From Burkholderiales bacterium (GTDB lineage: Bacteria; Pseudomonadota; Gammaproteobacteria; Burkholderiales; SHXO01): DNA of 64,000 nucleotides. Position numbers and translations under genes: made by a program. Below are positions 23,534 to 63,151 of this stretch, piece after piece. Below the pieces are notes generated by a model, which saw only the letters and a list, made by a program, of their open reading frames with translations, was not told the origin of the DNA and did no database searches. The stretch covers positions 21,277 through 85,276 of the forward strand of contig DAIQQA010000002.1 in assembly GCA_036787045.1 (NCBI GenBank), written 5' to 3'. Positions within the stretch are counted from its first letter, which is position 1; every line of letters starts with the position of its first letter.

Positions 23534-23744
23534 ACCGCAGAGGCGCGGAGACGCAGAGGACCCGAGGAGAAGAAACGAGGAAGATCGGCGCGAGGCTCGC
23601 CGGCGCAATGAACGCAATCGAGTAGAGTGACCAGCTCGCTGTGAGTCCGATCACCTGTCCAGCGTCAGATCTCATGTCCGGTGACCACGAAGGGACAGCC
23701 GTTTCTTCCTCTGCGTTTCCTCTGCGTTTCTGCGCCTCTGCGGT
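23534..23744. repeat. composite hairpin element A (CGCAGAGG-type arms)
   Basis: Left arm ACCGCAGAGGCGCGGAGACGCAGAGGACCCGAGGAGAAGAAAC. Reverse complement of the right arm: ACCGCAGAGGCGCAGAAACGCAGAGGAAACGCAGAGGAAGAAAC. Core is about 125 nt. Lies between the convergent glnD and flhB-like genes; the right terminus touches the flhB-like stop codon. Confidence 0.8.
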
Positions 23745-24049
23745 TATGGGGTAGACCGCGGAGCGGCAGGGAGTAATGGTAGGCCTTCCCCGCGCTCGAT
23801 GCGGTACAACCACGCGAGCAGCTCCGCCACGGCGACGTAGAGCTGCGGCGGGATATGCTGGTCCAGGTCCACCTGCATGAGCAGCGCGACCAGCTCCGGC
23901 GACTCGTGGACGTACACGCCGGCGTCACGCGCGCGTTCGACGATGGCCTGCGCGAGCAATCCCCGGCCTTTGGCCACGACGCGGGGAGCCCCTTCCTCCT
24001 CCTGGTAGGCCAGGGCGACCGCCAGATTCGGTGGATCAGGCTGGATCAT
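23744..24049 (-). CDS. standalone FlhB C-terminal-domain protein (EscU/YscU/HrcU switch-domain family, YlqH-like)
   Basis: 101 aa, no TM region. LAVALAYQEEEGAPRVVAKGRGLLAQAIVERARDAGVYVHESPELVALL...ELYVAVAELLAWLY matches the post-cleavage FlhB-CC subdomain. Confidence 0.75.
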   Translation of the reverse strand: MIQPDPPNLAVALAYQEEEGAPRVVAKGRGLLAQAIVERARDAGVYVHESPELVALLMQVDLDQHIPPQLYVAVAELLAWLYRIERGEGLPLLPAAPRSTP

Positions 24050-25136
24050 CGGTCGCTACCGAAAACCCTGAAAGCGTGAGCCCGGCCTCTCGCAGCGCGT
24101 CGGCAAGCGCACCCTGCCCGTCCCGTAGGAGGCCCGCGGCTACCCCGTCATCCGCAGCGAGGCGCAAGCGCACACGGCCGGCGCTCAGGCCCAGCTCTGC
24201 GCTCACCTCGCCCAGCCGGGGCAGCGTCAGTCGCAGATGCGTGGTCCACGGCGCTGGCTCAGCGCGTGCGGTGTCATGTTCGGGCGGCTCCTCGATGCGC
24301 CATTCGAGTGGCGTCCCGGGCCAGGCCTGCCCGTGCCAAGAAATCTGGCGGTGCTCGATAACGTCGAGCTGACTGCGGATCTGGGCGAGCGTTTGGGCGT
24401 CGAACGGCTGCGCGTCGCGCCGGGGCTCGCCTGTCTGCGCACGCGGGACGCCGGCGTCGGGCGCAGACGTCACGGGGTTGCGGACCGGTTCCGCATCGAG
24501 GTCCTGGGGACTCGGCGGAGAGGGCGGGGAAATCGTCGACAGCCGCCCCTGGGGCTCGTGCAGCAGCGCCGCGAGCGGCCGCTCCCCCGCAAACCACTGC
24601 ATCAGGTGCGACTCGTAGAAGAGCCCGCTGCGATCCACTGTACGCTGGAACGCGGAAGCCAGGACCGCGGCCGTACTTGGCGGGCCCGGCAGGAGCGGCA
24701 CCGGGTCCTCGACTGGTGCAGGCGACGGGGCTGCCGAGCGTGCGACGTTCGCTTCGTTTTGCAGCGCCGCGGTGAGCACGCGTCCGGCAGCGCTGATCTG
24801 GACCTGTGGCGGCCGACCAGGCAGGGCATTCTCGGCGGCTTGCCCCTGGCCGGCGTCGGTCAGCACGGCAAAGGCGACACGCGGAGAAGCGGACAAGAAC
24901 TCGAGCCGCAGCGCATCGCCCACCTGCGCCTTGACCGGCAGCTCGACGTCGAACTGGAAGGTGGCCACGCGGATCTGATAGCGCCCGCCAGGCAGCTCGC
25001 GCTCGACCTGGGCGGTCAGGCGTTGCCCAGATGTCCAGGGCACTTGTGGCCCATGGGCCTCGTCGCTCGTTCCGGTGAGCGACGCGTCGACCGCCGTGCG
25101 CAGTGCGAGGACCTGGGCCTGCAGGGTCACCGCCAT
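24036..25136 (-). CDS. FliK-like flagellar hook-length control domain protein
   Basis: 366 aa. Pro/Ala-rich middle and a C-terminal block (LRLTLPRLGEVSAELGLSAGRVRLRLAADDGVAAGLLRDGQGALADALREAGLTLSGFSV) typical of the Flg_hook/FliK C-terminal domain. Overlaps the flhB-like start by 14 nt. Confidence 0.65.
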   Translation of the reverse strand: MAVTLQAQVLALRTAVDASLTGTSDEAHGPQVPWTSGQRLTAQVERELPGGRYQIRVATFQFDVELPVKAQVGDALRLEFLSASPRVAFAVLTDAGQGQAAENALPGRPPQVQISAAGRVLTAALQNEANVARSAAPSPAPVEDPVPLLPGPPSTAAVLASAFQRTVDRSGLFYESHLMQWFAGERPLAALLHEPQGRLSTISPPSPPSPQDLDAEPVRNPVTSAPDAGVPRAQTGEPRRDAQPFDAQTLAQIRSQLDVIEHRQISWHGQAWPGTPLEWRIEEPPEHDTARAEPAPWTTHLRLTLPRLGEVSAELGLSAGRVRLRLAADDGVAAGLLRDGQGALADALREAGLTLSGFSVATDDPA

Positions 25137-25185
25137 TGCTGATCCCCCCGGCCATGGCCGCGGGACAGTGCCTCCGGGCGGTGGA

Positions 25186-25590
25186 CTAGATGCGCAGCTT
25201 GCGGTAGAGCGCGACGATCAGCTCGGCTTCGCCCCGGGAGATGCCGCAGCGACTGGACACTTCCGAGGCGCTGAGTCCCTGGCGGGCCATCTGGATCGCG
25301 TGGTTGTAAGGCGAGACGGCAGGGGGCGTAGCCGACTTCAGGCGGTCCAACTCGCTTTGCAGCCTTACCACCTGGCTGCGCAGTTCGCCGATTTCCAGGC
25401 TCAACGCGTTCAGGGCCTGGCCCTCGGAGCTGGATGCCGTGCGTGCCCACGGATTCACCCGGCGGCCCGACCAGCGCAGCAGGAGCAACACTTCCGCCAC
25501 GTAGATGGCCAAGACGGCGATAACGACGACCAACAACTCACGCCAGGTAATGACCAGGGCTTCCACTGCGCGCTCCCACCGCTTCGCCAC
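25186..25590 (-). CDS. DUF2802-like flagellar-cluster protein (TM + coiled coil + C-terminal HTH-like segment)
   Basis: 134 aa. TM helix LLVVVIAVLAIYVAEVLLLL and a C-terminus QMARQGLSASEVSSRCGISRGEAELIVAL resembling DUF2802 proteins found in flagellar loci. Confidence 0.55.
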   Translation of the reverse strand: MAKRWERAVEALVITWRELLVVVIAVLAIYVAEVLLLLRWSGRRVNPWARTASSSEGQALNALSLEIGELRSQVVRLQSELDRLKSATPPAVSPYNHAIQMARQGLSASEVSSRCGISRGEAELIVALYRKLRI

Positions 25591-25687
25591 ACGAACCGCA
25601 TCGAGTTTGCTACTTTAGGCAGTGGGCGTCAACACGGGCCATCGGCAACGGATCGGTTGACATTTCGGCGAAGGAGCCGGGCCGGTT

Positions 25688-26011
25688 TCAGGGCCCGTAG
25701 GTACGGTTCAGCCGCTGCTCGGCGCTGATGCTGCCCAGCACCTCGCGCAGCTCGTGCATCCAGTCCTGGGTAAGCAGCTGTATCTGCTCGTCCAGACGCA
25801 GCATCGTTTGGATGACCTCGCGCTTGCGGTTGCGCGACGAAGCGTCGCTACCGGGGTCGGGATCCTCCTGTCTGAGGCGATCCACGAGAACAGAGCGCTC
25901 CCGCTCCCGCTGCACGAGCGCATCCCAGTCGCCCTTCTGCGCCGCCTCCAGCATGGTGCGCGTGAGCTCGAGCGCGCGCTCGTAGCACTGGAGCACGCTC
26001 CGGGACTCCAC
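25688..26011 (-). CDS. fliT: flagellar export chaperone FliT-like
   Basis: 107 aa, helical. ...MLEAAQKGDWDALVQRERERSVLVDRL resembles FliT. Located directly downstream of fliS. Confidence 0.6.
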   Translation of the reverse strand: MESRSVLQCYERALELTRTMLEAAQKGDWDALVQRERERSVLVDRLRQEDPDPGSDASSRNRKREVIQTMLRLDEQIQLLTQDWMHELREVLGSISAEQRLNRTYGP

Positions 26012-26015
26012 CCCG

Positions 26016-26483
26016 TCAGACCCGCCCGTAGCTCAGCGCCGGACGTTGTGCCGGCTCATCGGCCTGGCTGCGTTCCAGTTGGGCCTGACGGCCTTGCCGC
26101 TCGAGCGCTTCCCAGGCCCCCTTGAGCTCGACGAGCAGGCTCGCCGCCTCGTCGAGCGACGGCTCGTCGCCCTTCAGGTTCGCGTACAACAGGCGATTCA
26201 CGATATATTCGTAAAGCGCCATGAGGTTGGCAGCGATGTCGCCGCCAGCCTCCAAATCCAGCGCAGGTCGCAACCCTTCGTCGATGATCGCGATGGCCCG
26301 GGATATGGATGCCCCGCGCGCGCCGACGTCCTTGCGCGCCACGGCCGCCTTGGCATTGTAGATGGCCTTCGCCGCGCCTTCGTAGAGCATTACCACTAGC
26401 TTCTGCGGGCTGGCGGCTGCCACCCCCGTTTCTATCTCGAGCCGCTGGTACGCGTCCAGCGCCTGCTCTACCCGAGCCGTCAT
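26016..26483 (-). CDS. fliS: flagellin-specific chaperone FliS
   Basis: 155 aa. YEGAAKAIYNAK...AIAIIDEGLRPALD...LYEYIVNRLLYAN, the FliS four-helix signature. Confidence 0.9.
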   Translation of the reverse strand: MTARVEQALDAYQRLEIETGVAAASPQKLVVMLYEGAAKAIYNAKAAVARKDVGARGASISRAIAIIDEGLRPALDLEAGGDIAANLMALYEYIVNRLLYANLKGDEPSLDEAASLLVELKGAWEALERQGRQAQLERSQADEPAQRPALSYGRV

Positions 26484-26507
26484 CGCTGTTCTCCTGGTTG
26501 GGTTCGG

Positions 26508-28511
26508 TTACTGCTGAGTCGGGTCAGGCAGCTTGTCGAGCTGCTGCGTCAGAAAGTTGCTCGTTGCCGTCAGGTTGCTGATCAGCGTGTCCAGAGTAGT
26601 GAACTGCGAGCGATAGCGCCGCTCGACATCTTCCAGGCGCCGGCTGAGCGTCTCCCTGCGACGGTCGAGCTCGGCAATGCTGCGGTTGATTCCTTCGGTG
26701 CGCCCGGCGACGCCCCCCTCCCCGGACAGCCAGCTCTCCAGGAGACCGGTCAGCCGCTCTGCGTAGCCGCGCGTGAAGTTGACGGCGCCGCGCGCCCCGA
26801 TGCTGCCACCGGTGACCTCGAGTACCAGTCCGTCTACCGCAGACCCGGATGCGCCGGTCAGGCGCTGACCGGATCCGGTCGCCGCCAAGCCGTTGATGGC
26901 ACCCGCCACGTCCACTCCGGCCGCAGCCACCGGAGCCGGCCCGAACAGTGTAGTCGCGGCGCTGCCTGCTGCGGCGACGGTCGAATTCGAGCCAAATCGC
27001 TTGGAGGTCATCGTCAGCAACCCGCCGGATTCCGTCACGACGACCTGGGCGCCCGCACCGCTCAGTGCCGCGCTGCCGTTCACGGCCGCCTGCACCTGGG
27101 CAGCGAGTGCCGACGCGGTGTAGGTTCCGGCAGCAAGCGTGACGCTGGCAGCCACGCCGTCCACGGTCACCGACAGGGCGTCGTTGACGCCAGCGGAGAT
27201 CGTCAGGCCGGCTGGAGCCGACCCGGTGAGCGTTCCCTGGCTCGCGAGTGTCGTGACATCCACGCTATACAGCCCCGGGGCCGTGCGCGTTCCGCTGGAG
27301 ATCACTTGCACCTGAACATCGGTCGCTGTCCCGAGCGACGCAAACAGTCGCGCGACATCGTCGGGGTGGCTGGCCAGTGCCTCCCCCAGCTTGCCTGAGT
27401 CGAACCCCAGTGAACCGTCGCGCTGGAAAGCGATCCCGGCCTGACCGAGGATGCGCACACTGCTGGTCTGCAGTCCTGGGAGGGCGGTCGAGAGTGCCGA
27501 GCGAAGCTGGGACTGGACCGCTCGCGCAGCCGGGTCGCCCAGCAGGGGCCCGCCCTGTCGCGTCTGCGGATCGTACTTGGTCAGTTCGCTAAGGGTAGTG
27601 TTGAAGTCGTTGTAGGCCTTCACCAGCGCCTGCAGCGCCTGAGTCACGCCCGCGGTGTCCCGCGCCAGTGTGAGCGTCGTGCTGCCGACCTTCGCAACGT
27701 TCAGGCTGATGCCCTCCAGCGCGTCGCCGACCACGTTGGATGAGCTGGAGATGGCAACGCCGTTGATCGAAAGCTTGGCGTCCTGAGCCGCAACGCTTTG
27801 CGTCAGGTTCTGGGTGCCAGAAGCGTCGTACGCCAGCAACGCCTGCACAGCGGCGTCTCCGCTCACCGAGACGCGCAGGCTGCGCGCTGCGCCGCTGCCG
27901 TCGCTTTGCAGCACCAGGCGGTAGGGTGCCGCGCTGCCGTCCTTGACGATGCTCGCGGTCACGCCGAGGCTTGCGGAGTTGATCGCATCGCGCACGCCCT
28001 GCAGGGAGTTGTTGGAAGCATCGATGGTGACCGTGCCTGCGGGGACGCTGCCGTCCTGCGTGAAGCTCGCGCCAGTGTAGATACCGCTCGACAGGGTGCC
28101 GCCGGCGATCGTGCCGAACTCGAAAGTCAGCGTCGTGCTCGCACCTGCTCCAATCGCACCGGTTGCGCTCGTCTGGCCTGCGGCAACCAAGGTCTGCTTC
28201 TGCGCCAGCTGACTGACGTCGATGGCGTAGCCGCCCGGCGACTTCGCGCTGGAGACCGAAGCGGACAGAATCGAGCTGTCCGCTGCCGTTGCCTTGAAGG
28301 CCTGGAAGCTTGACGGGCTATCCAGTGCCGACGCAGCGGTCTGCAACGCCGAGAGCGCACCGCGCAGGTTGCCGTAACCCGACAACTTCGCCTGGTACGC
28401 CGCCTCCTTGCTGTCGAGCAGCGTGAGCGGGCGCCGCTCGATGGTCATCAGCTGTGTGACGATGCTGTTGACGTCGAGGTTGGAGCCTACGCCCGGCGCC
28501 GAGATTGCCAT
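26508..28511 (-). CDS. fliD: flagellar filament cap protein FliD
   Basis: 667 aa. N-terminus ISAPGVGSNLDVNSIVTQLMTIERRPL and C-terminus YRSQFTTLDTLISNLTATSNFLTQQL. Long Ala/Gly/Ser/Thr-rich central region. Confidence 0.9.
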   Translation of the reverse strand: MAISAPGVGSNLDVNSIVTQLMTIERRPLTLLDSKEAAYQAKLSGYGNLRGALSALQTAASALDSPSSFQAFKATAADSSILSASVSSAKSPGGYAIDVSQLAQKQTLVAAGQTSATGAIGAGASTTLTFEFGTIAGGTLSSGIYTGASFTQDGSVPAGTVTIDASNNSLQGVRDAINSASLGVTASIVKDGSAAPYRLVLQSDGSGAARSLRVSVSGDAAVQALLAYDASGTQNLTQSVAAQDAKLSINGVAISSSSNVVGDALEGISLNVAKVGSTTLTLARDTAGVTQALQALVKAYNDFNTTLSELTKYDPQTRQGGPLLGDPAARAVQSQLRSALSTALPGLQTSSVRILGQAGIAFQRDGSLGFDSGKLGEALASHPDDVARLFASLGTATDVQVQVISSGTRTAPGLYSVDVTTLASQGTLTGSAPAGLTISAGVNDALSVTVDGVAASVTLAAGTYTASALAAQVQAAVNGSAALSGAGAQVVVTESGGLLTMTSKRFGSNSTVAAAGSAATTLFGPAPVAAAGVDVAGAINGLAATGSGQRLTGASGSAVDGLVLEVTGGSIGARGAVNFTRGYAERLTGLLESWLSGEGGVAGRTEGINRSIAELDRRRETLSRRLEDVERRYRSQFTTLDTLISNLTATSNFLTQQLDKLPDPTQQ

Positions 28512-28541
28512 GCGCCCCTCCTGGGATCTAGTGTGAGCATA

Positions 28542-28568
28542 TTAACGTCCGGGCTGGTGCTGGCTTTA
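28542..28568 (-). promoter_or_regulatory. candidate sigma-28 (FliA) promoter for fliD
   Basis: Minus strand reads TAAA-N15-GACGTTAA (consensus TAAA-N15-GCCGATAA; 6/8 in the -10 element), ending about 30 nt upstream of the fliD ATG. Confidence 0.45.
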
Positions 28569-28624
28569 ACCTGCCGTTCGGGCTGCAGCAGGGCGCAGGA
28601 TGCCCCCTGCGGCCCGGCCGGAAG

Positions 28625-28981
28625 CTACACCCGTTGGTGCAGCAGAAGCCCCTGCAGCCGTTCCAGCGAGCGGCTGACGGCCAGCACTTCCTCTGACGGG
28701 ATCTGCCGGATCAACTCGCCGCTGTCGCTGTCGACCACTCGGACGATGGTCTTGCCGGTGTCCTCATCGATGGAGAAGCGGATGTTCTGCGCAGCCGCAC
28801 GCAGCTGCTCGTTGATCCGCTCGACCGCAGTCCCGAGCTGCAGGGTATCTGGCTGTTGGGGTTGCGCGGGACCGGTACTGGGTGCAGCCGCGCTCACGGG
28901 CTCGCTGCGCGCGGGCGCCGGCTGCTGCGGGGTGTCCGGACGCAGCCCCGCGGCACTGCTCGTGATGGATTGAATCGCCAT
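28625..28981 (-). CDS. flaG: flagellar protein FlaG
   Basis: 118 aa. C-terminal FSIDEDTGKTIVRVVDSDSGELIRQIPSEEVL is the FlaG family signature. Between fliC and fliD. Confidence 0.8.
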   Translation of the reverse strand: MAIQSITSSAAGLRPDTPQQPAPARSEPVSAAAPSTGPAQPQQPDTLQLGTAVERINEQLRAAAQNIRFSIDEDTGKTIVRVVDSDSGELIRQIPSEEVLAVSRSLERLQGLLLHQRV

Positions 28982-29054
28982 AACCTCACCTCATTCAGCC
29001 AGCTCCTCGCCTCGCGTGAAGTTGCGTGGCGCGGTGGGCCCGTGGGCTGCATGA

Positions 29055-29081
29055 GGGGCAGGGAGATCGCTCCCCCTGCCC
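29055..29081 (-). terminator. GC-rich stem-loop downstream of fliC (no U-tract)
   Basis: Minus-strand RNA GGGCAG-GG-GGAG-CGAU-CUCC-CUGCCC, 31 nt after the fliC stop. It lacks a poly-U tail, so it may be a partial terminator or a stabiliser. Confidence 0.4.
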
Positions 29082-30620: not shown

Positions 30621-30823
30621 TCTTTACTCCTTACTCCTTTGTTGAGAGCCGGAAAGCGAAGTCCAGTAACGTTGTGTTCTGGCTGCGACCGTTGCTCCAG
30701 ATTAACGGCAGAAGTTGCCGGAACTTGAGTTGCCGGTTGCCGCTGAAGAGGATGGGAAGGAGTAGGGAAAGCGGCGTGGATGCTCGATCTTCGAGGATTG
30801 ATCGATGCGCCGCTTGAAGCGGA

Positions 30824-32148: not shown

Positions 32149-32236
32149 TACGAGCACTGAGCACCGAGTATCGAGTACCGTGTGATCTGCGTCGGGCTTG
32201 CGACGTCACTCGGTCCCCAGCACTCAGCGCTCATCA
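32149..32236. repeat. composite hairpin element F (GAGCAC/CGAGTA-type arms)
   Basis: Left arm ACGAGCACTGAGCACCGAGTATCGAGTACCG. Reverse complement of the right arm: ATGAGCGCTGAGTGCTGGGGACCGAGTGACG. About 25-nt core, between the hpt stop and the mtnP start. Confidence 0.6.
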
Positions 32237-44126: not shown

Positions 44127-44323
44127 CAGCGGCGCGACTCTACTCATCTAGCTTCCCCGCATAGCCTTACGCCGGGGGGTCTCGCCGCTGCCGCTCGGCT
44201 GCGGCTGGTCGCCCCGCCTTGGGGCGCGGCCAGGCTATCGCCGGCCGCATCCAGGCTGCGCCTGAAACTTGCTTTGGCCCCCCGGGTTGGTGACTGGACT
44301 GACCGCGTGCAAAGAGGATTGCC

Positions 44324-45486: not shown

Positions 45487-45594
45487 AAGGCGTGACAGCG
45501 TGAAGACCACGCTTCCCGGTCACGCCTTCCGGTTACGCTTTTCTGTCACGCCTTGCCTGTCACGCCTTTCTGTCACGCTCCTCGGTCACGCCTT
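45487..45594. repeat. composite element G: two inverted GGCGTGAC-type words followed by six GTCACGCC-type direct repeats with 13-14 nt phasing
   Basis: GGCGTGACAGCGTGAAGACCACGC, then GTCACGCC at 45519, GTTACGC 45532, GTCACGCC 45545, 45559, GTCACGC 45572, GTCACGCC 45585. Ends in TTATAAT (45593-45599), 9 nt before the dapE ATG. Confidence 0.8.
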
Positions 45595-45598
45595 ATAA

Positions 45599-47645
<2,047 letters not shown>

Positions 47646-49613: not shown

Positions 49614-51319
49614 GCTTTAGCTCCTCTCGCCTCTTGCCTATCGCCTGGTCCGATGGGGCGTATCGATTCGTCAATGACACGCGCGTCGAAGTTTTCCACC
49701 AGCTCGCGCACAAATGGATCCTGGTCGATCGCTTGAACCGCGGCCTCCTGGCGCACCTGCAGCGCGCGGTCTTCCAGCTCCGCCGGCGTCTGGCCGGTCG
49801 GCTGCCCGAGCGCAAACTCGATCCGCAGACGCCGCCCGAAATGCTCCTCCAGTGCCGCCTGCAGTTTGTCCCGGTAGGGCTTCTCGAGAAGATGCTTGTG
49901 CGCCTCTGGCACGCGCAGCCGCATGCCCTGGCCGTCCCACATGCTCAGTTCGCTGTGCTGGGCGAGCATGCGTGCCATGCCGCCGACCTTCAGCTCGACC
50001 AGCAGCTGTCCCCAGTCGAGTCGCTCATGCGCAGCGACCTTCCCGGGTTCGCCTGTGGCGGCTGGTGCCGGTACCGCCTGGATGTCAGCCGCAGTGCTGG
50101 GAGGCGGTGCGTCGCTCTGCGGCCGCACCGACTGGCTGGTCCCGTGCGGTTGCGCCGACGGGTTTCTGTTTCCGGGCTGAGCTTGACCAGCCCCCCGATC
50201 GCTCCCTCCGGCCTCCCGGGGTGCGAAGGCAAGCATCCGCAGAAGGGTCATGGTGAAGCCTGCGTACTCATCTGGAGCAAGCCACAGATCGGCACGTCCT
50301 TGCAGGGCGATCTGGTAGTCCAGCTGCAGATCCTCGGCGGTGAAGCTGGCTGTCAACGCTTGCAGCCGGTCCCGGTCGGGCTCGTCGGGCGGCATCGTGT
50401 CGGGCACAGTCTGCAGCAGCGCGAGCCGGTGCAGCATGCCCGCCAGCTCCTGCAGCGCAGCTTCAAGAGACAGGCTGCGGCTCTGCATCTGCTCTGCGAT
50501 GCGCATCATCTGCGGCCCGTCCTGGCCGGCCAGCGCCTCCAGCAACGCGTACAGGTAGGTCTGGTCGACGGCACCGAGCATCTCCCGCACCGATGCCTCG
50601 GTCACGCTGCCGGCGCCGTGAGCGATGGCCTGATCGAGCAGGCTCAGCCCGTCGCGCATGCTGCCGTGTGCCGCACGGGCAATCAGATTGAGCGCTGCCG
50701 GCTCGAAGGCGACGCTCTCCTGCTCGAGCACGCGGCTGAGTTGGTCGCGGATCTGCGCCACCGGAATCTGTTTCAGGTTGAACTGCAGGCAGCGCGACAG
50801 CACGGTCACCGGAACCTTCTGCGGGTCGGTGGTGGCAAGGATGAACTTGACGTGCTCGGGCGGCTCTTCCAGCGTCTTCAGCATCGCGTTGAATGCCGAG
50901 CGCGACAGCATGTGCACTTCGTCGATGATGTACACCTTGAAGCGCGCCCGGGTCGGCGCGTAGAGCGCGCTCTCCAGCAGCTCGCGCATCTGGTCGACCT
51001 GCGTGTTCGAGGCGGCATCCAGCTCGATCAGGTCGACGAAGCGTCCACCGTCGATTTCGATGCAGGCGGAGCACTTTCCGCAGGGCGAGGCCGTCACTCC
51101 GGTCTCGCAGTTGAGCGCCTTGGCCATGACCCGTGCGAGTGTCGTCTTGCCCACGCCGCGGGTGCCGGTCATGAGGTAGGCGTGATGTAGGCGGTTGCGC
51201 TCCAGCGCGTTGGTCAGGGCACGCACCACGTGCTCCTGGCCGACCATCTGATCGAAGCTGCGGGGGCGCCACTTGCGCGCCAGCGCCTGGCCGGACCCGG
51301 CGGGGACGGCGGGACTCAT
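49610..51319 (-). CDS. dnaX: DNA polymerase III subunit gamma/tau
   Basis: Start reset to ATG 51319 ([31 protein letters not shown]). Walker [10 protein letters not shown], zinc module CGKCSAC, DEVHML. The upstream part of the track ORF covers the SRP RNA gene. Confidence 0.93.
49621..49648. repeat. solitary repeat arm H (GGCGAGAGG type) inside the last codons of dnaX
   Basis: Plus strand CTCCTCTCGCCTCTTGCCTATCGCCTGG; reverse complement CCAGGCGATAGGCAAGAGGCGAGAGGAG. Same word family as element E. Encodes the dnaX C-terminal ...[11 protein letters not shown]. Confidence 0.5.
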
Positions 51320-51379: not shown

Positions 51380-51479
51380 GGGTGGCGAGCCTGACCCCCG
51401 GCACTTGCAGGTAATAGCTGTGGCTGCTTCCTTCCGGACCTGACCAGATTCACTAGCCTGCAATGCGGGGAGGCCCGCC
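51380..51479 (-). ncRNA. ffs: signal recognition particle RNA (4.5S/small bacterial SRP RNA)
   Basis: Minus strand: GGCGGGCCUCCCCGCAUUGCAGGCUAGUGAAUCUGGUCAGGUCCGGAAGGAAGCAGCCACAGCUAUUACCUGCAAGUGCCGGGGGUCAGGCUCGCCACCC. Contains the universally conserved domain IV core GGUCAGGUCCGGAAGGAAGCAGCC, and the 5' and 3' ends pair. The usual ffs-dnaX neighbourhood. Ends are approximate (+/- 5 nt). Confidence 0.85.
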
Positions 51480-51485
51480 ATAGAA

Positions 51486-51609
51486 ACCGATAGGCGATAG
51501 GCGAGAGGCGGGAGGCGAGAGGAACAAGCCTACGGCGTTTCCGATCGAGCGATCGCCACGCGCCTGTCTCCCCCACCTCTAGCCTCTTGCCTCTAGCCTC
51601 TCGCCATCG
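51486..51609. repeat. composite hairpin element E (CGAGAGG-type arms)
   Basis: Left arm ACCGATAGGCGATAGGCGAGAGGCGGGAGGCGAGAGG. Right arm ACCTCTAGCCTCTTGCCTCTAGCCTCTCGCCATCG (reverse complement CGATGGCGAGAGGCTAGAGGCAAGAGGCTAGAGGT). About 52-nt core, between the fumarase stop and the ffs 5' end. Confidence 0.75.
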
Positions 51610-51620
51610 TCGTCCCGGGG

Positions 51621-53135
51621 TTACGCCGGGACGACGGGGATCTTCCCGATTTTGGCCCGCCATTGCGCGGGCCCCGTATTGTGGACGGAGTTGCCGGCGC
51701 TGTCGACTGCGACGGTGACCGGCATGTCCTTCACCTCGAACTCGTAGATGGCTTCCATGCCCAGGTCCTCGAAAGCGACTACGCGCGCGGCCTTGATCGC
51801 CTTGGACACCAGGTAAGCCGCGCCGCCCACTGCCATGAGGTAGACGGCCGCATAGTCCCGTATGGCCTCGATCGCCGCAGGCCCCCGCTCGCCTTTCCCG
51901 ATCATGCCGACCAGTCCGGTCTTCTCCAGCATGGTGCGGGCAAACTTGTCCATCCGCGTGGCGGTCGTGGGACCGGCAGGGCCCACCACCTCGTCGCGTA
52001 CCGGGTCGACCGGCCCCACGTAGTAGATGAACCGGTTGGTGAAATCCACCGGCAGCTTCTCGCCCCGGGCTAGCATGTCGACGATGCGCTTATGGGCTGC
52101 ATCGCGGCCGGTCAGGATTCTGCCGTTGAGCAGCAGCACATCGCCCGGTTTCCAGGCGCCGACCTCCTCACGCGTGACTTTGTCGAGGAACACCCGCCTG
52201 CCTTTCGAAAAGTCATAGGTCAGACTGGGCCAGTCGTCCAGCGACGGCGGCTCGAGGCGGGCCGGGCCGCTCCCGTCGAGGGTAAAGTGAACGTGGCGAG
52301 TAGCGGCGCAGTTCGGAATCATCGCGACGGGCAGGCTAGCGGCATGGGTCGGATAGTCCTTGATCTTGACATCCAGCACGGTGGTCAGCCCCCCCAGCCC
52401 CTGGGCCCCGATCCCCAGCGCGTTGACCTTTTCGTACAGCTCGGTGCGCAGCTCTTCGATGCGGCTGCGTGGCCCTCGCGTTAGCAGCTCCTGCATATCG
52501 ATAGGCTCCATCAGCGCCTCTTTGGCCATCAGCATGGCCTTCTCCGCAGTGCCGCCGATGCCGATGCCCAGGATCCCTGGCGGGCACCACCCGGCGCCCA
52601 TCGCGGGAACCGTCTCGAGCACCCAGTCGACTATCGAGTCGGAGGGGTTGAGCATCACGAACTTGGACTTGTTCTCGGAACCGCCACCTTTGGCGGCCAC
52701 CTCGACCTCTAAGGTGTCGCCGGGAACCAGGCTCACGTGGATCACCGCCGGCGTGTTGTCGCGGGTGTTCTTGCGGGTTCCCGCCGGATCTGCCAGCACG
52801 GATGCCCGCAGCTTGTTGTCCGGATGCAGGTAGGCACGGCGCACGCCCTCGTTGACCATGTCCTCCACGCTCTGCGTTGCAGCCCACCGCACACCCATGC
52901 CGACCCGCAGGAAGACATTCACGATCCCGGTGTCCTGGCAGATCGGCCGGTGGCCTTCGGCGCACATGCGCGAGTTGATCAGGATCTGCGCCATCGCGTC
53001 GCGGGCCGCCGGGGCCTGCTCCTTCTGATAGGCGCGGTAAAGATTGGAGATGTAGTCCGCCGGGTGATAGTAGGAAATGAACTGCAGCGCGTCCGCCACG
53101 CTGTCGACCAGATCGTCCTGCCGGATGGTGCTCAT
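51621..53135 (-). CDS. fumA: class I (Fe-S dependent) fumarate hydratase
   Basis: 504 aa. ...[13 protein letters not shown]... and the C-terminal beta-domain motif GKGERG, consistent with fused alpha/beta class I fumarase. Confidence 0.9.
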
Positions 53136-53286: not shown

Positions 53287-55254
<1,968 letters not shown>

Positions 55255-57438: not shown

Positions 57439-57933
57439 ATGCAGACAATGCACAAAGCCCTTGTTTCCTTGCTCGGCTCAGCCCTGGCGCTCGGCGTGTG
57501 CGCCATCCCAGTCGCTTTCGCGCAGGAGACAGGCTCCGGGATGACCATCATCGTCCCGGGCGACAAGCAGTGGCAGAAGAGCAAGGACATGCCGTACGGC
57601 ATGCGAATGATGTATCTCCATGGCGACCCTTCGCAACCGGGACCGTACGTGCTTCGTATCCGGGTGCCTACCGGCTACAAGATTCCGCCAGTGAAGTACC
57701 CCGACGATCGTGTCACCACCGTGCTCAAGGGCAAGATGTGGAACGCGGAGGGGGAGCGCTACGACCCGATGAAGATGCAGGAATGGGAGGCGGGAACAAT
57801 GTTCGTCACTCCCGCCAACACACCGCACTACCAGTGGGCTCGCACGGAGTTGATTCTGCAAGTGGTAGGATTCGGACCGATCGACAACCCCGTGACGTAC
57901 ATCAACCCCGACGACGATCCTCGCACGCAGTAA
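57439..57933 (+). CDS. secreted cupin-domain protein, paralog 1 (His cluster lost)
   Basis: ATG 57439 gives MQTMHKALVSLLGSALALGVCAIPVAFAQE (signal peptide); the track ORF starts at GTG 57397. Paralogous to the next gene (LHGDPSQPGPYVLRIRVPTGYKIPP vs LHGSPDKPGPYIFRVKFPAGYKLPP) but reads VKYPDD where the paralog has HHHQD. Confidence 0.6.
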   Translation: MQTMHKALVSLLGSALALGVCAIPVAFAQETGSGMTIIVPGDKQWQKSKDMPYGMRMMYLHGDPSQPGPYVLRIRVPTGYKIPPVKYPDDRVTTVLKGKMWNAEGERYDPMKMQEWEAGTMFVTPANTPHYQWARTELILQVVGFGPIDNPVTYINPDDDPRTQ

Positions 57934-58001
57934 GTAGGCATCACCCGATCCGAGGGGCGGCGCACAGCGCCGCCCTTCGCGTTCTCGAACAGGAGGCCTG
58001 A

Positions 58002-58496
58002 GTGACCAAGATGACCAAACGATCGGTGCCGGCGGCCGTGCTCGGTCTCGCCCTGCTGGGCGCGGGCGTGCCGACCGTTGCCGAGCAGACGCTGTTGATG
58101 AAGGGACACGACACAGTCGCGGCGCCGGAGCTTCAGTGGGTAGAAGCGGAATCGATTCCGCCCGGCGCACGGATGATCATGCTGCACGGGAGCCCCGACA
58201 AGCCGGGGCCTTACATCTTCCGGGTCAAGTTCCCGGCCGGCTACAAGCTGCCCCCCCATCATCACCAGGACGCCCGCTCGGTGACGGTGCTCACCGGCAG
58301 CTACTGGTCCGCAGTGGGAGATAGCTACGATCAGTCCAAGTTGAAGAAGTTCGGTCCGCGCGACTACTACACGACCGACGCAGGCGTGAGCCACTTCGCC
58401 TGGGCCGAGACCGAGGTCATCATCCAGGAGATGGGGATGGGGCCGGTGTCCTCGCCCGTCGAGTACGGCAACCCGGCGGACGACCCGCGCAAGTAG
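58002..58496 (+). CDS. secreted cupin-domain protein, paralog 2 (PPHHHQD metal motif retained)
   Basis: GTG 58002 lies 5 nt after AGGAGG. Signal peptide ...AAVLGLALLGAGVPTVAEQ. Cupin motif 1-like PPHHHQDARSVTVLTG and motif 2-like AGVSHFAW. Confidence 0.65.
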   Translation: MTKMTKRSVPAAVLGLALLGAGVPTVAEQTLLMKGHDTVAAPELQWVEAESIPPGARMIMLHGSPDKPGPYIFRVKFPAGYKLPPHHHQDARSVTVLTGSYWSAVGDSYDQSKLKKFGPRDYYTTDAGVSHFAWAETEVIIQEMGMGPVSSPVEYGNPADDPRK

Positions 58497-58510
58497 GAAC
58501 CAACCTACAC

Positions 58511-58673
58511 CTCGACGCAAAAGCGTAAAGGACGCGAAGGAAAGCAAGAGAGTCTGGCAGGACGGCGGCTTGTCGTGCCAGCATGGCTGGATCCTCTGTT
58601 GCTCTTATCGCGACGGTATGGTTGGGCCACTCTATCCAGTTTTTCTTTGCGTCCTTTGCGCCTTTGCGTTGAG
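58511..58673. repeat. composite hairpin element C (CGCAAAGG-type arms)
   Basis: Left arm CTCGACGCAAAAGCGTAAAGGACGCGAAGGAAA. Reverse complement of the right arm: CTCAACGCAAAGGCGCAAAGGACGCAAAGAAAA (about 28/33 identical). About 90-nt core, between the convergent cupin-2 and prpE. Confidence 0.8.
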
Positions 58674-58691
58674 ATTTCGACCTTGACCTGA

Positions 58692-60599
58692 TTAGTCGCG
58701 CGACGCCGCAACAGCAGAGCGGATCTGCTCCAGCGCGGCCGGATCCTCCAGAGTCGTCAGGTCCCCCGGGTCGCGCCCCTCGGCCAGTGCCTGGATGCTG
58801 CGCCGGAGCAGCTTGCCCGAGCGCGTCTTCGGCAGCAGGTTGACGAAGTGCACCCGGGAAGGCCGCGCGATGGCGCCCAGCTGCTGGTCGACGGTGGCCA
58901 TGACTTCCTTCTCATGCAACGCCGCCAGCTGCGGCGTAGCGATCTTCGAGAGATCCTTCACCACGGCGAAAGCCAGCGGCATCTGCCCCTTGAGCTGGTC
59001 ACTGACGCCCACTACTGCAACCTCGGCGATGTTGGGATGCGCCTGCATGGCCTCCTCGATCTCACGTGTGCCGAGACGGTGACCCGCGACGTTGATGACG
59101 TCGTCGGTGCGCCCCAGGATGAAGTAGTAGCCGTCCCTGTCGCGGATCCCCCAGTCGAAGGTCGAGTATACCTGCCGGGTGCTGAACGTCTTGAAATAGG
59201 TGTTCACGAAGCGCTCATCGTCGCCCCATACCGTGCTCATGCAACCGGGCGGCAGGGGCGGCGCGATAGCGACCACTCCTTTCTCCTCGTCGGCCGCAGG
59301 GCTGGCGTCGGTCTCTCTCAGCAGCTGCAGGTCGTACCCGAAAGCCGGAAACGACGGGCTCCCGAACTTGATTGCCGTGTTCTCGATTCCAGGCACGGCA
59401 GTCAGAATCGGCCACCCGCTTTCGGTCTGCCAGTAGTGGTCCACTACCGGCTTGCCCAGCGCGTCCATGATCCAGCGATGGGTTGGCTCGTCGAGCGGCT
59501 CGCCCGCCAGGAACAGATGCTTCAGCGATGACAGGTCGTACTTCTTCAGATAGGCAGGATCCTGCTTCTTCAGCACCCGGATGGCAGTCGGCGCGGAGAA
59601 CATCACTCGCACTTGGTTGTCCTGCACGATTTTCCACCAGATGCCCGGGTCGGGGCGGATCGGTACGCCCTCGTACATGACCGTGGTCATCCCGGCGATA
59701 AGCGGGCCATAGATGATGTACGAGTGGCCCACCACCCAGCCGATGTCCGACGTGGTGAACATAGCTTCGCCGGCGTCGCCGCAGTAGATGTGCTTCATCG
59801 AGGCGGCGAGCGCCGTCGCGTATCCGCCCACGTCGCGCTGCACCCCTTTCGGCTTGCCGGTCGTGCCCGACGTATACAGTATGTACGAGGGCTCGTTGGA
59901 CTCGAGCCACGCGACCGGCACATCGGCATCCAGGTACTGGCTGCGCAGCGAGGCATAGTCCACGTCACGGCCCGCAGTCATCGGCATGTTTCTGTCGATG
60001 CCCCGGTTGATCAGTACCACCTTTTCTGGCGGAGACTTCGCCAGGCGGATGGCTTCGTCGAGCAGGTGCTTGTAAGGGACCGCTTTGCCGGCACGCATAC
60101 CGGCATCGGACGAGATGATCAGCTTCGGCCGCGCGTCGTCGATGCGTGTCGCGAGGCTGTGCGAGGCGAACCCGCCGAACACCACCGAGTGGATGGCGCC
60201 GATGCGGGCACAGGCAAGTATCGCGAAGCAGGCCTCCGCGATCATCGGCATGTAGATAATTACCCGATCGCCTTTGCCCACACCGAGGCCGAGCATGGCC
60301 GCTGCGAAACGCCGCACTTCGTCGTGCAGCTCGCGAAAGCTGTAAGACTTCTCCTCACCGGTCTCAGTCGAGATATAGACCAGCGCTTTCTGCTCGCCAC
60401 GCGTCGCCAGATGTCGATCCACGGCGTTGTAGCACAGGTTGGTCTGTCCGCCCAGGAACCACTTCGCGAATGGTGGCCGGCTGAAGTCGAGCACGCGCTC
60501 GAACGGCTTGTGCCAGTGCACCAGTTGCGCCTGCTCGGCCCAGAAGCCCTCGCGGTCTTCGATCGATCGTCGGTGGAACGCCTTGTATTCGCCTGCCAT
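58692..60599 (-). CDS. prpE: propionate--CoA ligase / short-chain acyl-CoA synthetase
   Basis: 635 aa. Acs-like N-terminus (FWAEQAQLVHWHKPF), [32 protein letters not shown]. The shorter N-terminus and overall pattern resemble PrpE rather than Acs. Confidence 0.8.
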   Translation of the reverse strand: MAGEYKAFHRRSIEDREGFWAEQAQLVHWHKPFERVLDFSRPPFAKWFLGGQTNLCYNAVDRHLATRGEQKALVYISTETGEEKSYSFRELHDEVRRFAAAMLGLGVGKGDRVIIYMPMIAEACFAILACARIGAIHSVVFGGFASHSLATRIDDARPKLIISSDAGMRAGKAVPYKHLLDEAIRLAKSPPEKVVLINRGIDRNMPMTAGRDVDYASLRSQYLDADVPVAWLESNEPSYILYTSGTTGKPKGVQRDVGGYATALAASMKHIYCGDAGEAMFTTSDIGWVVGHSYIIYGPLIAGMTTVMYEGVPIRPDPGIWWKIVQDNQVRVMFSAPTAIRVLKKQDPAYLKKYDLSSLKHLFLAGEPLDEPTHRWIMDALGKPVVDHYWQTESGWPILTAVPGIENTAIKFGSPSFPAFGYDLQLLRETDASPAADEEKGVVAIAPPLPPGCMSTVWGDDERFVNTYFKTFSTRQVYSTFDWGIRDRDGYYFILGRTDDVINVAGHRLGTREIEEAMQAHPNIAEVAVVGVSDQLKGQMPLAFAVVKDLSKIATPQLAALHEKEVMATVDQQLGAIARPSRVHFVNLLPKTRSGKLLRRSIQALAEGRDPGDLTTLEDPAALEQIRSAVAASRD

Positions 60600-60613
60600 G
60601 CTCTTCTCCCTAG

Positions 60614-60815
60614 ACCGCTCACTACTACCCCTAACCTCTTACCACGAAGACACGAAGGCACGAAGACAAGACCAAGAAGAGCACCAACCGAGCGTCATCA
60701 CTCGATCCGGCGATGCGGTGACCCAATCCCACCGCTTCCCTCGAACTTCTCGCGCTTTGCTCAGCCTGCAGGTCGTCCTTTCTTGCTTTCTTCGTATCTT
60801 CGTGGTGAGCGGTAG
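60614..60815. repeat. composite hairpin element D (CACGAAGR-type arms)
   Basis: Left arm ACCGCTCAC[18-nt insert]ACCACGAAGACACGAAGGCACGAAGACAAGACCAAGAAG. Reverse complement of the right arm: CTACCGCTCACCACGAAGATACGAAGAAAGCAAGAAAGG. About 95-nt core, between the acuI stop and the prpE start. Confidence 0.8.
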
Positions 60816-60832
60816 TAACTTCAGCGCGCAGC

Positions 60833-61825
60833 TCAACCACCAACCTTGACCACAGCGCGCCCCCGGAATTGCGCCTTGAGGATCTTATCGAACACTGGCT
60901 TCATGCCATCCAGTTCCACCGTTGTTACCATGGACTGAAGGTGGCGGGGCTTCAGGTCGGTTGCCAGCCGCTCCCAGACGCTCCGCCGCACCGGCATCTG
61001 CGTGTTCACGGAATCCACACCGAGCAGGCTGACGCCACGCAAGATGAACGGCATGACCGTGGTGTTGAAAGTATGGCTGGCCGCGAGCCCGATGCTCGCC
61101 AGCGTTCCGCCCACGTTCATCGTGCTGGCAAGCCAGGACAGCACCTCGCCGCCGAGATTGTCCACCGCACCCGCCCACGCTGCCTTGTCCAGTGGCTTGA
61201 TCTTCGTCAGATCGAGCGCGCTGCGCAGCATCACCTCCTTGGCGCCCAGGCCTTTCAGATAGTCGCTCTCGGCTTCCTTTCCAGTCAGCGCGACCACGTG
61301 GTAGCCGGCCCCGGCGAGGATATCTACTGCGATGCTGCCCACGCCGCCGGTCGCGCCGGTGACTATAACCGGTCCGTTGTCAGCCTTGAGGCCTTCGTGC
61401 TCCATGCGCACGACCGCCAGACCCGCTGTGTAACCGGCGGTACCGAGCGCCATGGAATCGAACAGCGACATGCCCTTGGGCAGCGGCACAACCCAACCAG
61501 CCGGCAGACGCATGTATTGGGCGTAGCCGCCGTCGTGGGCAACGCCGATGTCGTAGGATGTGGCGATGACCTCATCGCCTTCCCGGAACCGGGGGTCGGT
61601 CGAGGAGACCACGGTACCGCAACCGTCGATGCCACCCACACAGGGGAAGCGCCGGATGATCTTGCCGGTGCCCGTCGCCGCCAGCGCGTCCTTGAAGTTG
61701 ATGCTCGAGAACGCGGTCTTGATGACCACCTCGCCGGGATCCAGCTCATCGAGAGTCATCTCCACCAGCCGGGAGACGACCTTGCCCTCTTCGCTGAAGA
61801 TCCGGAATGCCTTGAACTTCGCCAT
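60833..61825 (-). CDS. acuI: YhdH/AcuI-type NADPH:acrylyl-CoA reductase (MDR family)
   Basis: Start reset to ATG 61825 (MAKFKAFRIFSEEGKVVSRLVEMTLDELDPGEVVIKTAFSSINFKDALA, as in the YhdH/AcuI subfamily). GATGGVGS cofactor motif. Confidence 0.8.
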   Translation of the reverse strand: MAKFKAFRIFSEEGKVVSRLVEMTLDELDPGEVVIKTAFSSINFKDALAATGTGKIIRRFPCVGGIDGCGTVVSSTDPRFREGDEVIATSYDIGVAHDGGYAQYMRLPAGWVVPLPKGMSLFDSMALGTAGYTAGLAVVRMEHEGLKADNGPVIVTGATGGVGSIAVDILAGAGYHVVALTGKEAESDYLKGLGAKEVMLRSALDLTKIKPLDKAAWAGAVDNLGGEVLSWLASTMNVGGTLASIGLAASHTFNTTVMPFILRGVSLLGVDSVNTQMPVRRSVWERLATDLKPRHLQSMVTTVELDGMKPVFDKILKAQFRGRAVVKVGG

Positions 61826-61878
61826 ATCTGGTCTCCTGTTTTGCTTGCCTGCGCCGCTCCCGCCCCGACAGATCCGAG

Positions 61879-62958
61879 TCACGCAAGATGCGGCTTGCTC
61901 AGGTACTGCGCGGTCTGCATTTCGATCAGGCGGCTGCGCGTGCGCTCCAGCTCCGAGGCGGCTGGCATACCGGCGTGCAACTCGTAAGCCGGCACCTCAG
62001 CGGCCACGATCAGCTTGACGTTGCGGTCGTAAAATTCGTCGACCAGCCAGGTGAAGCGTCGCATGCTCTCGGCCATTCCCGGGCCGAAGTGCCGCAAGCC
62101 CCATAGCAAGACCGTATGGTACCGCCGGGCGAGCTCGATGTAATCGGCAGTCCCGCGCGGACCCTCACAAAGCTCGCGAAAGTCGAACCACGCGGTGCCC
62201 GGCGCGAGACGCAGCGCCCGGATCGTGCGCCCTTCGATTTCCACCGAGGCTGCGTCCTCGCCATGCTCGCCCGCCACCCCCTCGAAGGCTTGCTCCAGGT
62301 GGCGGCGCGCGGCCGTGTCTAGCGGCCAGTGGTACACGCCCGCGCGCTCCAGAGTACGCAGCCGGTAGTCCTGTTCCCCATTCAGCTCGACCACCTCGGT
62401 GTGCTGCTTCAGCAGCGCGATCGCCGGTTCGAACTGCGCGCGTTGCAGGCCATGTTCGTACAGCTGGTCGGGGTGCTGGTTGGACGTCGTCACCAGAGCG
62501 ATACCCCGTACGAACAGCCCTTCCAGTAGGCCGCGCATGAGCATAGCGTCGCCGATGTCGGTGACATGCAACTCGTCCAGGCACAGCAGGCGGGTGTCGT
62601 TCGCAACATGCTCGGCGATGATCGCGAGCGGTTCGGCCTGGCCTTGTAGCTGCTTGAGCCGATGATGGATGCCCTGCATGAAACGATGGAAGTGCAGGCG
62701 GCGCTTGGCTTGCACCGGCGCGAGCTTGAAGAACTCGTCCATCAGAAAGCTCTTGCCGCGCCCTACCGGGCCCCACAGGTAGATCCCGCGCACCGGCCGG
62801 CGCCGACCCAGCAGGCGGTCGAGCACACCGCCGTTGTCACCCAGTTCTGCCGCGAGGCGCTCGAAGCTCTCCGCCACCCGCTCCTGAGCGGGATCCAGCT
62901 CGAAGCCGTGGTGCGCGGCTGCGTGCCTGAGCTGGCTACGGAAATCGGCACTCCCCAC
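61879..62958 (-). CDS. zapE: cell division protein ZapE (AFG1-like ATPase)
   Basis: 359 aa. Walker A GPVGRGKSFLMD, Walker B LLCLDELHVTD. GTG start. Downstream of lpdA, as commonly seen. Confidence 0.85.
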   Translation of the reverse strand: MGSADFRSQLRHAAAHHGFELDPAQERVAESFERLAAELGDNGGVLDRLLGRRRPVRGIYLWGPVGRGKSFLMDEFFKLAPVQAKRRLHFHRFMQGIHHRLKQLQGQAEPLAIIAEHVANDTRLLCLDELHVTDIGDAMLMRGLLEGLFVRGIALVTTSNQHPDQLYEHGLQRAQFEPAIALLKQHTEVVELNGEQDYRLRTLERAGVYHWPLDTAARRHLEQAFEGVAGEHGEDAASVEIEGRTIRALRLAPGTAWFDFRELCEGPRGTADYIELARRYHTVLLWGLRHFGPGMAESMRRFTWLVDEFYDRNVKLIVAAEVPAYELHAGMPAASELERTRSRLIEMQTAQYLSKPHLA

Positions 62959-62971
62959 CTACTGCAACCCT

Positions 62972-63151
62972 AACCGCAGAGGCGCAGAGGCGCGGAGGAA
63001 CGCAGAGGAAGAACCTTCGCGTGAGTGAGAGAGCACCGCCATCCGTTGAAGGCGGATTCTTGCCGATGCGCGCTTGCTGGTTGCCGAAAACGCCAGACGG
63101 AGAATCGGTGAATCCCTCCGCGCAACTCCGCGCCTCTGCGCCTCTGCGGTT
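62972..63151. repeat. composite hairpin element B (CGCAGAGG-type arms, same subfamily as A)
   Basis: Left arm AACCGCAGAGGCGCAGAGGCGCGGAGGAACGCAGAGGAAGAACC. Right arm CCCTCCGCGCAACTCCGCGCCTCTGCGCCTCTGCGGTT. About 98-nt core. Flanked on both sides by CCCT. Confidence 0.8.

Follow-up and report, generated by a model that had tools for sequence, protein, structure and literature searches.

What are the long hairpins with word-built arms that stand at gene ends in this DNA, and how do they come to be there? The question is raised by a family of inverted repeats in a 64-kb stretch of contig DAIQQA010000002.1 (referred to here as the window, which always means the full length and never a single element), from an uncultured soil/wetland betaproteobacterium of the order Burkholderiales. 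Each element consists of two arrays of short tandem words, inverted with respect to each other, around a spacer. Pairs of short-word arrays next to genes are on record from Geobacter and Xanthomonas, also at gene ends, but their nature and origin have never been explained. The present lineage offers a dense natural series of filled and empty sites, word-number variants, a deletion derivative and an orthologous site caught mid-homogenization, with which it becomes testable how long perfect hairpins arise and stay perfect without many independent compensatory mutations, and whether such arrays are selfish DNA, RNA processing signals or protein-binding arrays. We consider it probable that the elements form a propagating foldback repeat family, shaped by slippage and arm-to-arm homogenization, with most copies neutral or selfish and some co-opted.

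The elements are lettered A to H as in an earlier note on this DNA, and S is the copy at the sucB-lpd site of the same genome, of which about 86 kb is readable (the 64-kb window plus 22 kb beyond it). The comparison set comprises sister strain(s) at about 97% nucleotide identity (L085 and L089 at the G site) and relatives at 87–92% PrpE identity, including L179, at 92% protein identity, and L180–L183.

Arms, words and folds

First of all, the elements stand out in structure. The four longest inverted repeats of the window are A–D, and E ranks 11th. Tandem Repeats Finder reports arrays of period 7–8 in at least one arm of each of A–E (in both arms of B and E and in one arm of A, C and D; the right arm of A has periods 8 and 11), which bears out the description in the earlier note of tandem-word arms flanking a core. 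The hairpins also hold up against shuffled controls, with z-scores of −5 to −10 for A–E on both strands and uninterrupted helices of 13–27 bp in the folds. Left arms are nearly free of T and right arms nearly free of A, with the purine arm first on both strands; a single arm is thus unable to pair with itself. Four arms, three left (D, A and B) and one right (A), belong to the eight longest runs of the window that lack T or lack A. With at most one mismatch allowed, the degenerate two-word pattern CRCRRAGRCRCRRAGR has 12 matches where 0.79 are expected, a count reached by none of 100 shuffles; all 12 lie in A–D, the plus-strand matches all in left arms and the minus-strand matches all in right arms. 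The outer ends read AAC(C) ... (G)GTT, and the spacers between inverted arms measure 11–170 nt. Elements start 0–35 nt past a stop codon, two of them between convergent genes, five between co-oriented genes and none between divergent genes.

Searching Rfam for the family brought no match to the elements: at the gathering threshold only the signal recognition particle (SRP) RNA and two tRNAs were found in the window, and at E≤10 there was no match in 58.4–63.3 kb. Intrinsic termination was considered and rejected; terminator-like sites occur in 44–64 kb, none of them in or beside an element, and no U-tract terminator accompanies the elements. The spacers in the window contain no credible open reading frames (ORFs), the short ones present lacking a Shine–Dalgarno sequence and being inconsistent between elements. 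The earlier note had listed seven complete elements and one half-element, all intergenic. A–E stand as complete elements; F is a weaker hairpin whose membership is unproven because its words contain T; G is a remnant; and H lies within dnaX.

Second, each element is matched to itself. Among nine elements of the one genome, own-arm pairing averages −52 kcal/mol and pairing with foreign arms −30 kcal/mol, and the own-arm sum was matched by none of 100,000 permutations. The claim that each right arm complements its own left arm is thus sound, but its extension, that it does not complement the arm of another locus, fails for A, B and S, which cross-pair mutually near the level of self-pairing, and likewise for C and H. 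The cross-pairing matrix resolves into discrete classes, namely CGCAGAGG/CACAGAGG, CGCAAAGG/CGCGAAG, CACGAAGA/CACCAAGG, CGAGAGG and GGCGTGAC, and the words of A–D fit one degenerate consensus, CRCRRAGR. The arms do co-vary within each element, as the earlier note had it, but the words do not float freely from locus to locus; with the consensus and the recurring classes, the arms collapse in part towards a common sequence, an outcome that the note had itself named as counting against its reading.

The same classes, with the same AAC(C) ... (G)GTT termini, recur at non-orthologous loci in relatives and in distant Betaproteobacteria. Near-identical arms of 25–44 nt are common to unrelated loci and genomes, L024 carries the word class of S, and class GGCGTGAC is also found at the sucB-lpd site of L001. 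In IMG/VR, a class 1 18-mer occurs in 17 contigs, where about three would be expected on our own estimate of the collection's size (~58 Gb), and a class 2 16-mer in more than 120 contigs, several with multiple copies. BLAST against sequenced plasmids and isolated phages gave no match, although low-complexity masking may hide some, and a literature search for the exact word strings found nothing. The family thus has a degenerate consensus and sub-families, and its words are not truly locus-specific.

Filled and empty sites

Third, the elements come and go between close relatives. The gap between the ADH-family gene and prpE, which holds D in the window, measures 24–62 nt in relatives at 87–92% PrpE identity. 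D is absent from L179 and L180, and the empty site of L179 reads CCAAAGCC followed directly by GGGGGTAG, against ...AAAGCC[TACCTCT...AGAGGTA]GGGGTAG for the filled site. In the sister strain the whole D unit, TACCTCTCACCACGAAGA...TCTTCGTGGTGAGAGGTA, stands exactly at the empty-site point, and comparison of the empty and filled sites of D reveals no target-site duplication. C is absent from L180–L183, and its site in L176 and L179 holds class CGCAGAGG elements whose spacers barely align. B is absent from L182 and L183, where lpd and zapE abut, while L177 has an orthologue that is 93% identical and L181 also has an element at this site. In sum, B, C and D are missing from relatives at 87–89% protein identity, and D also from the 92% relative. 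E has orthologues in L179 (decayed) and L182 (with a 23-nt loop).

Genomes with empty sites carry members of the family elsewhere. Four word classes share the sucB-lpd gap among the six genomes in which it is filled, elements also stand in the sdhB-sdhE and fumarase-ffs gaps, and in the viral contig L217 one element is nested in the loop of another. In the genome of the window the density is about nine elements in 86 kb, or about one per 9 kb. Because relatives have clean empty sites without target duplication, the elements are lineage-specific insertions at gene ends and not conserved regulators. The earlier note had offered selection on the hairpin or homogenization of the arms as what would produce such elements; the empty sites tell against the first as the main story, and the sucB-lpd site, described below, supports the second.

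How the elements change

Comparison of orthologous sites shows four processes that reshape the elements: gain and loss of words, concerted change, rapid turnover of the spacer, and deletion to half-elements. Word number is polymorphic even inside populations: at D, L177 has three left words where L176 and L178 have only two, and at G, L089 has one more word than L085. Concerted change can be followed at the sucB-lpd site. In L181 the words there are CGCAGAGG/CCTCTGCG, with one CCTCTGTG word and two G.T pairs, and in S all six words are CACAGAGG/CCTCTGTG. Between the two there are two double-sided pair changes and two G.U intermediates, and pairing is held in 97% of cells. One variant in every word on both arms points to homogenization and not to six independent transitions. 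Changes of this kind are known to arise by template switching inside inverted repeats (PMC8794818, PMC5941160).

The spacers behave differently from one element to the next. Strain divergence at fourfold sites is 6–12%; B, at 93% identity, matches this rate and thus looks neutral, whereas the spacers of C and D diverge far beyond it and barely align even at about 97% nucleotide identity, D in the sister strain having the same words and a largely different spacer. An all-against-all BLAST over about 3.5 Mb found no likeness between the spacers of non-orthologous elements. Matches are confined to orthologous copies, so that a conserved core is rejected, and non-orthologous spacers show no similarity on either strand, which excludes spacer inversion. 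The recurring core word proposed in the earlier note, ATCGAG, is a weak, post-hoc signal, present in 4 of 25 cores (TCGAG in 7 of 25, where 2.5 are expected). Loops are long in the window lineage, at 53–132 nt, and short in relatives, at 11–35 nt (L182, L183, L013 and L004, sites S, H and E).

Deletion is best illustrated by G (45487–45594), a remnant of a class GGCGTGAC element in which one inverted word (45489–45496) is followed by a direct array of six to seven words with a period of about 13. At the same site L085 and L089 have a full element, in which both arms are built of GGCGTGAC words and the spacer measures about 95 nt. The G of the window is therefore a deletion derivative that has lost the spacer and most of one arm relative to the sister strains.

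Relation to known repeat families

The elements are a new example of a kind already recorded and poorly studied, to which the arrays of Geobacter and Xanthomonas are the closest. Tandem words of 5–9 nt, convergent arrays, intergenic positions at 3′ ends and several lineage-specific classes are all found here. The earlier note had named REPIN/BIME doublets and MITEs as the nearest analogues, a placement that these two systems displace. In Geobacter metallireducens, paired tandem-repeat sites of classes 1–4 have been described (Aklujkar et al. 2009, PMC2700814). Like the present elements, a site has three to five tandem copies of a 5–9 nt word, paired on opposite strands at variable distance; sites fall in intergenic DNA, such as the proB–proA gap or the 3′ side of convergent genes; there are several word classes per genome, two of them “evolutionarily related” with hybrid sites; and G. 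sulfurreducens, the sister species, lacks the sites. For class 2, the consensus TCTCCGTS[Y], on the other strand CACGGAGA, fits CRCRRAGR, a comparison made by the published consensus alone. Unlike the present family, the Geobacter sites are annotation features given in supplements only and read as IHF/HU-type sites, with no evolutionary analysis, and class 1 sites have IS110-family insertions beside them, of which none was seen in the present family.

In Xanthomonas, arrays of the heptamer GGGAATC number about 185 per genome (Rehm et al. 2015, PMC4692102). They too are tandem 7-mers, 89–93% of them intergenic, seldom placed between divergent genes and at a mean distance of 28 nt from the ORF upstream. 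Each genome has 70–75 convergent inverted pairs capable of forming stem-loops, array length varies between species, there is no linkage to insertion sequences (IS), and most arrays are transcribed (PMC4692102). They differ in being built on a single genome-wide G-tract word, studied as a former of G-quadruplexes, whereas the present words fall into several classes without G-tracts, and in that 83% of sites are conserved between species, whereas several of the present sites are confined to a single lineage.

Other systems are more distant. REPINs and BIMEs, which are REP doublets mobilized by RAYT (Bertels & Rainey 2011, PMC3116915), are likewise extragenic inverted doublets that form long hairpins, with several “flavours” per genome; they insert in or beside existing elements without target duplication, and singlets are apparently decay products. 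The REP unit, however, is a short imperfect palindrome of 20–40 nt with a GTAG/CGTC head, whereas the arms here are direct arrays; the spacers of the present copies are unrelated, and there is no RAYT in 86 kb. The elements are not REPs, because their arms cannot self-pair and their termini, AAC(C) ... (G)GTT, lack the GTAG/CGTC head. Correia (NEMIS) elements of Neisseria and bacterial MITEs (PMC2649163, PMC3184786) are similar in being betaproteobacterial and intergenic with terminal inverted repeats. Correia elements are co-transcribed with their neighbours, RNase III cleaves their hairpins, and promoters can be created by their ends (PMC2649163); they have a conserved core, simple 26-bp terminal inverted repeats and a TA duplication, whereas the present elements have no conserved core, arms made of word arrays and no duplication. 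Although terminal inverted repeats are present, the elements are not classical MITEs, because they have neither a duplication nor a shared interior. Foldback transposons (Drosophila FB, Galileo and Tetris; PMC3573991, PMC4079207) share long inverted repeats of variable-number tandem subrepeats and heterogeneous central regions, a resemblance that is architectural only, since they are eukaryotic, of kilobase scale and associated with P- or MULE-type transposases. Integron attC sites were considered and rejected, as the flanks do not match the R′′/R′ core sites (RYYYAAC...GTTRRRY) and the elements have syntenic housekeeping genes as neighbours, with no integrase.

Origin, spread and function

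How, then, might such a family work? In the reading we favour, a copy consists of AAC(C), three to five purine-rich words of 7–13 nt (mostly CRCRRAGR), a locus-unique non-coding spacer, the complementary pyrimidine-rich words and (G)GTT. Words would multiply and homogenize by replication slippage; complementarity of the arms would be kept mainly by intra-hairpin template switching or gene conversion, and not by independent compensatory mutations; and the family would spread by some form of copying without target duplication. Every copy would stand within a transcription unit or at its end, and its RNA would thus carry a perfect helix of 17–27 bp, which is the size of an RNase III substrate or of a barrier to 3′-exonucleases, although both of these roles are pure inference. 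Most copies would be neutral or selfish passengers and a few may have been co-opted. Two candidates for co-option are E and G. E is invariant between the two strains compared and stops 5 nt short of the SRP RNA, so that the ffs promoter region must be overlapped by its right arm. In G, the last words make up the best sigma-70-like site of 44–64 kb (CTGTCA-18-TATAAT, 45570–45599, plus strand), just upstream of the M20 peptidase gene.

Several observations weigh against a propagating foldback family. No two non-orthologous copies share a spacer, which is unusual for a copy-and-paste element, and the unit of transfer is undefined. There is no transposase or RAYT in the ~86 kb of genome. The earlier note was right that RAYT, transposase and integrase are all missing from the 64-kb window; we found in addition no cognate RAYT flanked by repeats in the window or in the 22 kb beyond it, and no parent IS with matching termini in the ~3.5 Mb of sequence compared. 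One site holds different word classes in relatives, which could reflect either repeated insertion at a hot spot or class switching in place. The covariation count on three alignable orthologues was reached by 130 of 500 shuffles and is not significant alone, a formal test being without power because only these three can be aligned. Finally, of the 18 elements that stand between co-oriented genes, 10 have the better fold on the transcribed strand, 3 have it on the other strand and 5 fold equally well on both, a bias that is suggestive only, the sign test being weak (10 versus 3, with some orthologues counted).

This strand bias, together with an enrichment of G.U pairs on the transcribed strand, which is the better one in 10 of the 13 asymmetric cases, would be expected if the elements were cis-acting structured RNAs (mRNA stabilizers, processing sites or atypical terminators) whose hairpin is selected and maintained by compensatory mutation. 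The very negative z-scores of the folds and the G.U intermediates at the S site point the same way, as does E: across E and the SRP RNA gene (51381–51612) there is no difference from the ~97% strain, while the other 108 nt of the 340-nt comparison, the flanking spacer, hold eight (p ~0.002 by our own hypergeometric estimate), three of which fall inside the adjacent hairpin at 51609–51640. Nevertheless, we regard selection on RNA structure as an unlikely general explanation. B, C and D are missing from close relatives in which the genes abut, the spacers are non-homologous even at ~97% nucleotide identity, both strands usually fold about equally well, there are neither U-tract terminators nor Rfam matches, and the change of all six S words to the same variant points to homogenization.

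A bolder reading, which we put forward only as an outside possibility, defines the family by process and not by sequence. The elements would be a bacterial foldback “palindromic minisatellite”, in which copies are seeded without a dedicated transposase, for example by hairpin-primed or template-switch synthesis from a single word array, words and arms evolve in concert, and purine arrays double as Shine–Dalgarno-like RNA signals. In the viral contigs L292 and L273 solitary purine arrays stand directly upstream of start codons, and H does likewise before ybaB. In other IMG/VR loci (L296, 2414–2694 and 8879–9135; L292, 5439–5680) a purine array with a Shine–Dalgarno sequence is followed by a small ORF and, after its stop codon, by the complementary array; the arm pairs thus bracket whole small genes. 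If this were true, hosts and phages would share a widespread undescribed mechanism that makes and reshapes long RNA/DNA hairpins at gene boundaries.

It is also conceivable that neither common descent nor mobility is involved, and that each element originated in place, where a pre-existing terminator or Shine–Dalgarno-like purine tract underwent slippage and fold-back template switching. Unique spacers, polymorphic word number, the lack of target-site duplication and the solitary purine arrays at Shine–Dalgarno positions would all follow, and hairpins can be created by template switching (PMC8794818). What makes a purely local origin improbable is that the AAC(C) ... (G)GTT termini and near-identical 25–44 nt arms are common to unrelated loci and genomes, that the empty and filled sites are collinear except at one point, where the whole unit is inserted, that one element is nested in another, and that all elements examined from the genome of the window and its close relatives begin with the purine arm.

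The word arrays could also be sites for one or several DNA-binding proteins, nucleoid-associated or global regulators binding convergent pairs, as proposed for G. metallireducens, where analogous paired arrays are read as IHF/HU or “global regulator” sites (PMC2700814). The fixed polarity of the words, the conservation of classes over large phylogenetic distances (L024 has the class of S) and the existence of solitary arrays (H, L273 and L292) are consistent with such a role. But a period of 7–9 bp does not keep phase with the DNA helix, a genome with five or more classes would need as many proteins, one orthologous site has undergone a switch of class, close relatives differ in whether an element is present beside core housekeeping genes, and no regulator gene is linked, so that we find protein binding hard to credit as the basis of the family. 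An artefact or chimera of the metagenome-assembled genome, to which the breakage of three short-read contigs (L172–L174) within the right arm of C might point, can safely be set aside, since identical elements occur in many independent JGI, ENA, NCBI and Logan assemblies, including long spanning contigs.

Individual elements and their surroundings

The window (G+C 66%) contains only syntenic housekeeping genes, among them the fab cluster, rne, uvrB and glnD, a flagellar block, ligA, zipA, smc, dapCDE, pilT, recR-ybaB-dnaX-ffs, and the genes for fumarase, acs, prpE, zapE and lpd. Its PrpE has its best match in the species-representative collection in an uncultured Burkholderiales metagenome-assembled genome, at 86% identity. 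Many assemblies of the same population (JGI, Logan and NCBI) cover the window at 99.7–100% identity; the population is present in JGI samples 3300027818, 3300027979, 3300009078 and 3300038549, among others, and contig CAYYEA010000003.1 of the metagenome-assembled genome GCA_964470675.1 matches the final 8.4 kb of the window at 99.94% identity.

Element A (class CGCAGAGG, 23534–23744) has arms at 23534–23569 and 23709–23744 around a unique spacer, with a T-less run at 23533–23584 and an A-less run at 23698–23745, and lies between the convergent glnD (plus strand) and flhB-like (minus strand) genes; its RNA fold has a z-score of −7.4, and an identical copy is present in 10 independent assemblies. 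Element B, of the same class (62972–63151, arms 62972–63008 and 63115–63151), has a unique 106-nt spacer and separates the minus-strand genes lpd and zapE, with a fold z-score of −7.0 and a perfect 26-bp helix.

Element C (class CGCAAAGG, 58511–58673, arms 58511–58558 and 58626–58673) separates a convergent cupin gene (plus strand) from prpE (minus strand), and its RNA folds far better on the plus strand (−89 versus −61 kcal/mol). The independent short-read Logan contigs L172, L173 and L174 all end at window position 58670, in the right arm of C, and at 310–429 of L182 a gene caller placed a 39-aa ORF that is in fact the sdhB-sdhE foldback element; the elements break short-read assemblies, and gene callers can take them for small genes. 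Beside C, L205 (12104–13152, corresponding to 57.3–58.5 kb of the window) encodes a PrpE identical to that of the window and two cupin genes of a 161-aa type, which is the type of the ~97%-identity strain, and may be a recombination mosaic.

Element D (class CACGAAGA, 60634–60813, arms 60634–60672 and 60775–60813) is flanked by the ADH-family gene and prpE, which are minus-strand genes. It has a second, outer complementary pair, GACCGCTCACTACTACC and GGTGAGCGGTAGTAAC, at 60614–60630 and 60806–60821, in which the order of the sub-blocks is wrong for a nested helix and hints at local rearrangement or alternative pairing. Element E (class CGAGAGG, a 7-mer; 51485–51609, arms 51488–51522 and 51576–51605, 53-nt spacer) follows the fumarase terminator hairpin and ends 5 nt upstream of the SRP RNA gene (51381–51479, minus strand). 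Adjoining it, a separate perfect hairpin, CGTCGTCCCGG...CCGGGACGACG, at 51609–51640 overlaps the fumarase stop codon.

The intergenic hairpin F (32149–32236) lies between a phosphoribosyltransferase gene and the MTA phosphorylase gene and may be a diverged member of the family or an ordinary hairpin. Its words (GAGYAYY) contain T; its fold is significant only on the minus, transcribed strand (z −5.3, against −2.1 on the plus strand), where the 19-bp helix includes six G.U pairs; and it is invariant in nine assemblies. For both A and F the recovered contigs all come from one 99.9% population, in which the copies are identical. H (49621–49648) is a solitary purine-word array of class CGAGAGG that reads GGCGATAGGCAAGAGGCGAGAGGAG on the minus strand. 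It is not intergenic, since it overlaps the last ~11 codons of dnaX, which overlaps ybaB by 4 nt, and ends in the ybaB Shine–Dalgarno sequence; it is conserved in L085 and in the 92% relative L179.

A ninth candidate, at 30624–30775, was rejected, its fold not being significant (z about −2) and the region being the 5′ end of fliC. Directly upstream of fliC, TTACTCC occurs twice (30624–30640), the minus strand reading AAGGAGTAAGGAGTAA, which resembles a duplicated Shine–Dalgarno sequence and forms no element. The dapD-pilT spacer (44127–44302) contains a 62-nt A-less run (44170–44231), and L086, from the same population, is out of register with the window from about position 44143, consistent with an indel. 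Within coding sequence, an 18-nt tandem repeat, GAACGGCCCGAGCGCCAG, is present in 6.4 copies at 13655–13770, in the C-terminal half of the RNase E gene (11648–14449, plus strand), and the longest T-less run of the window lies in this same repeat region.

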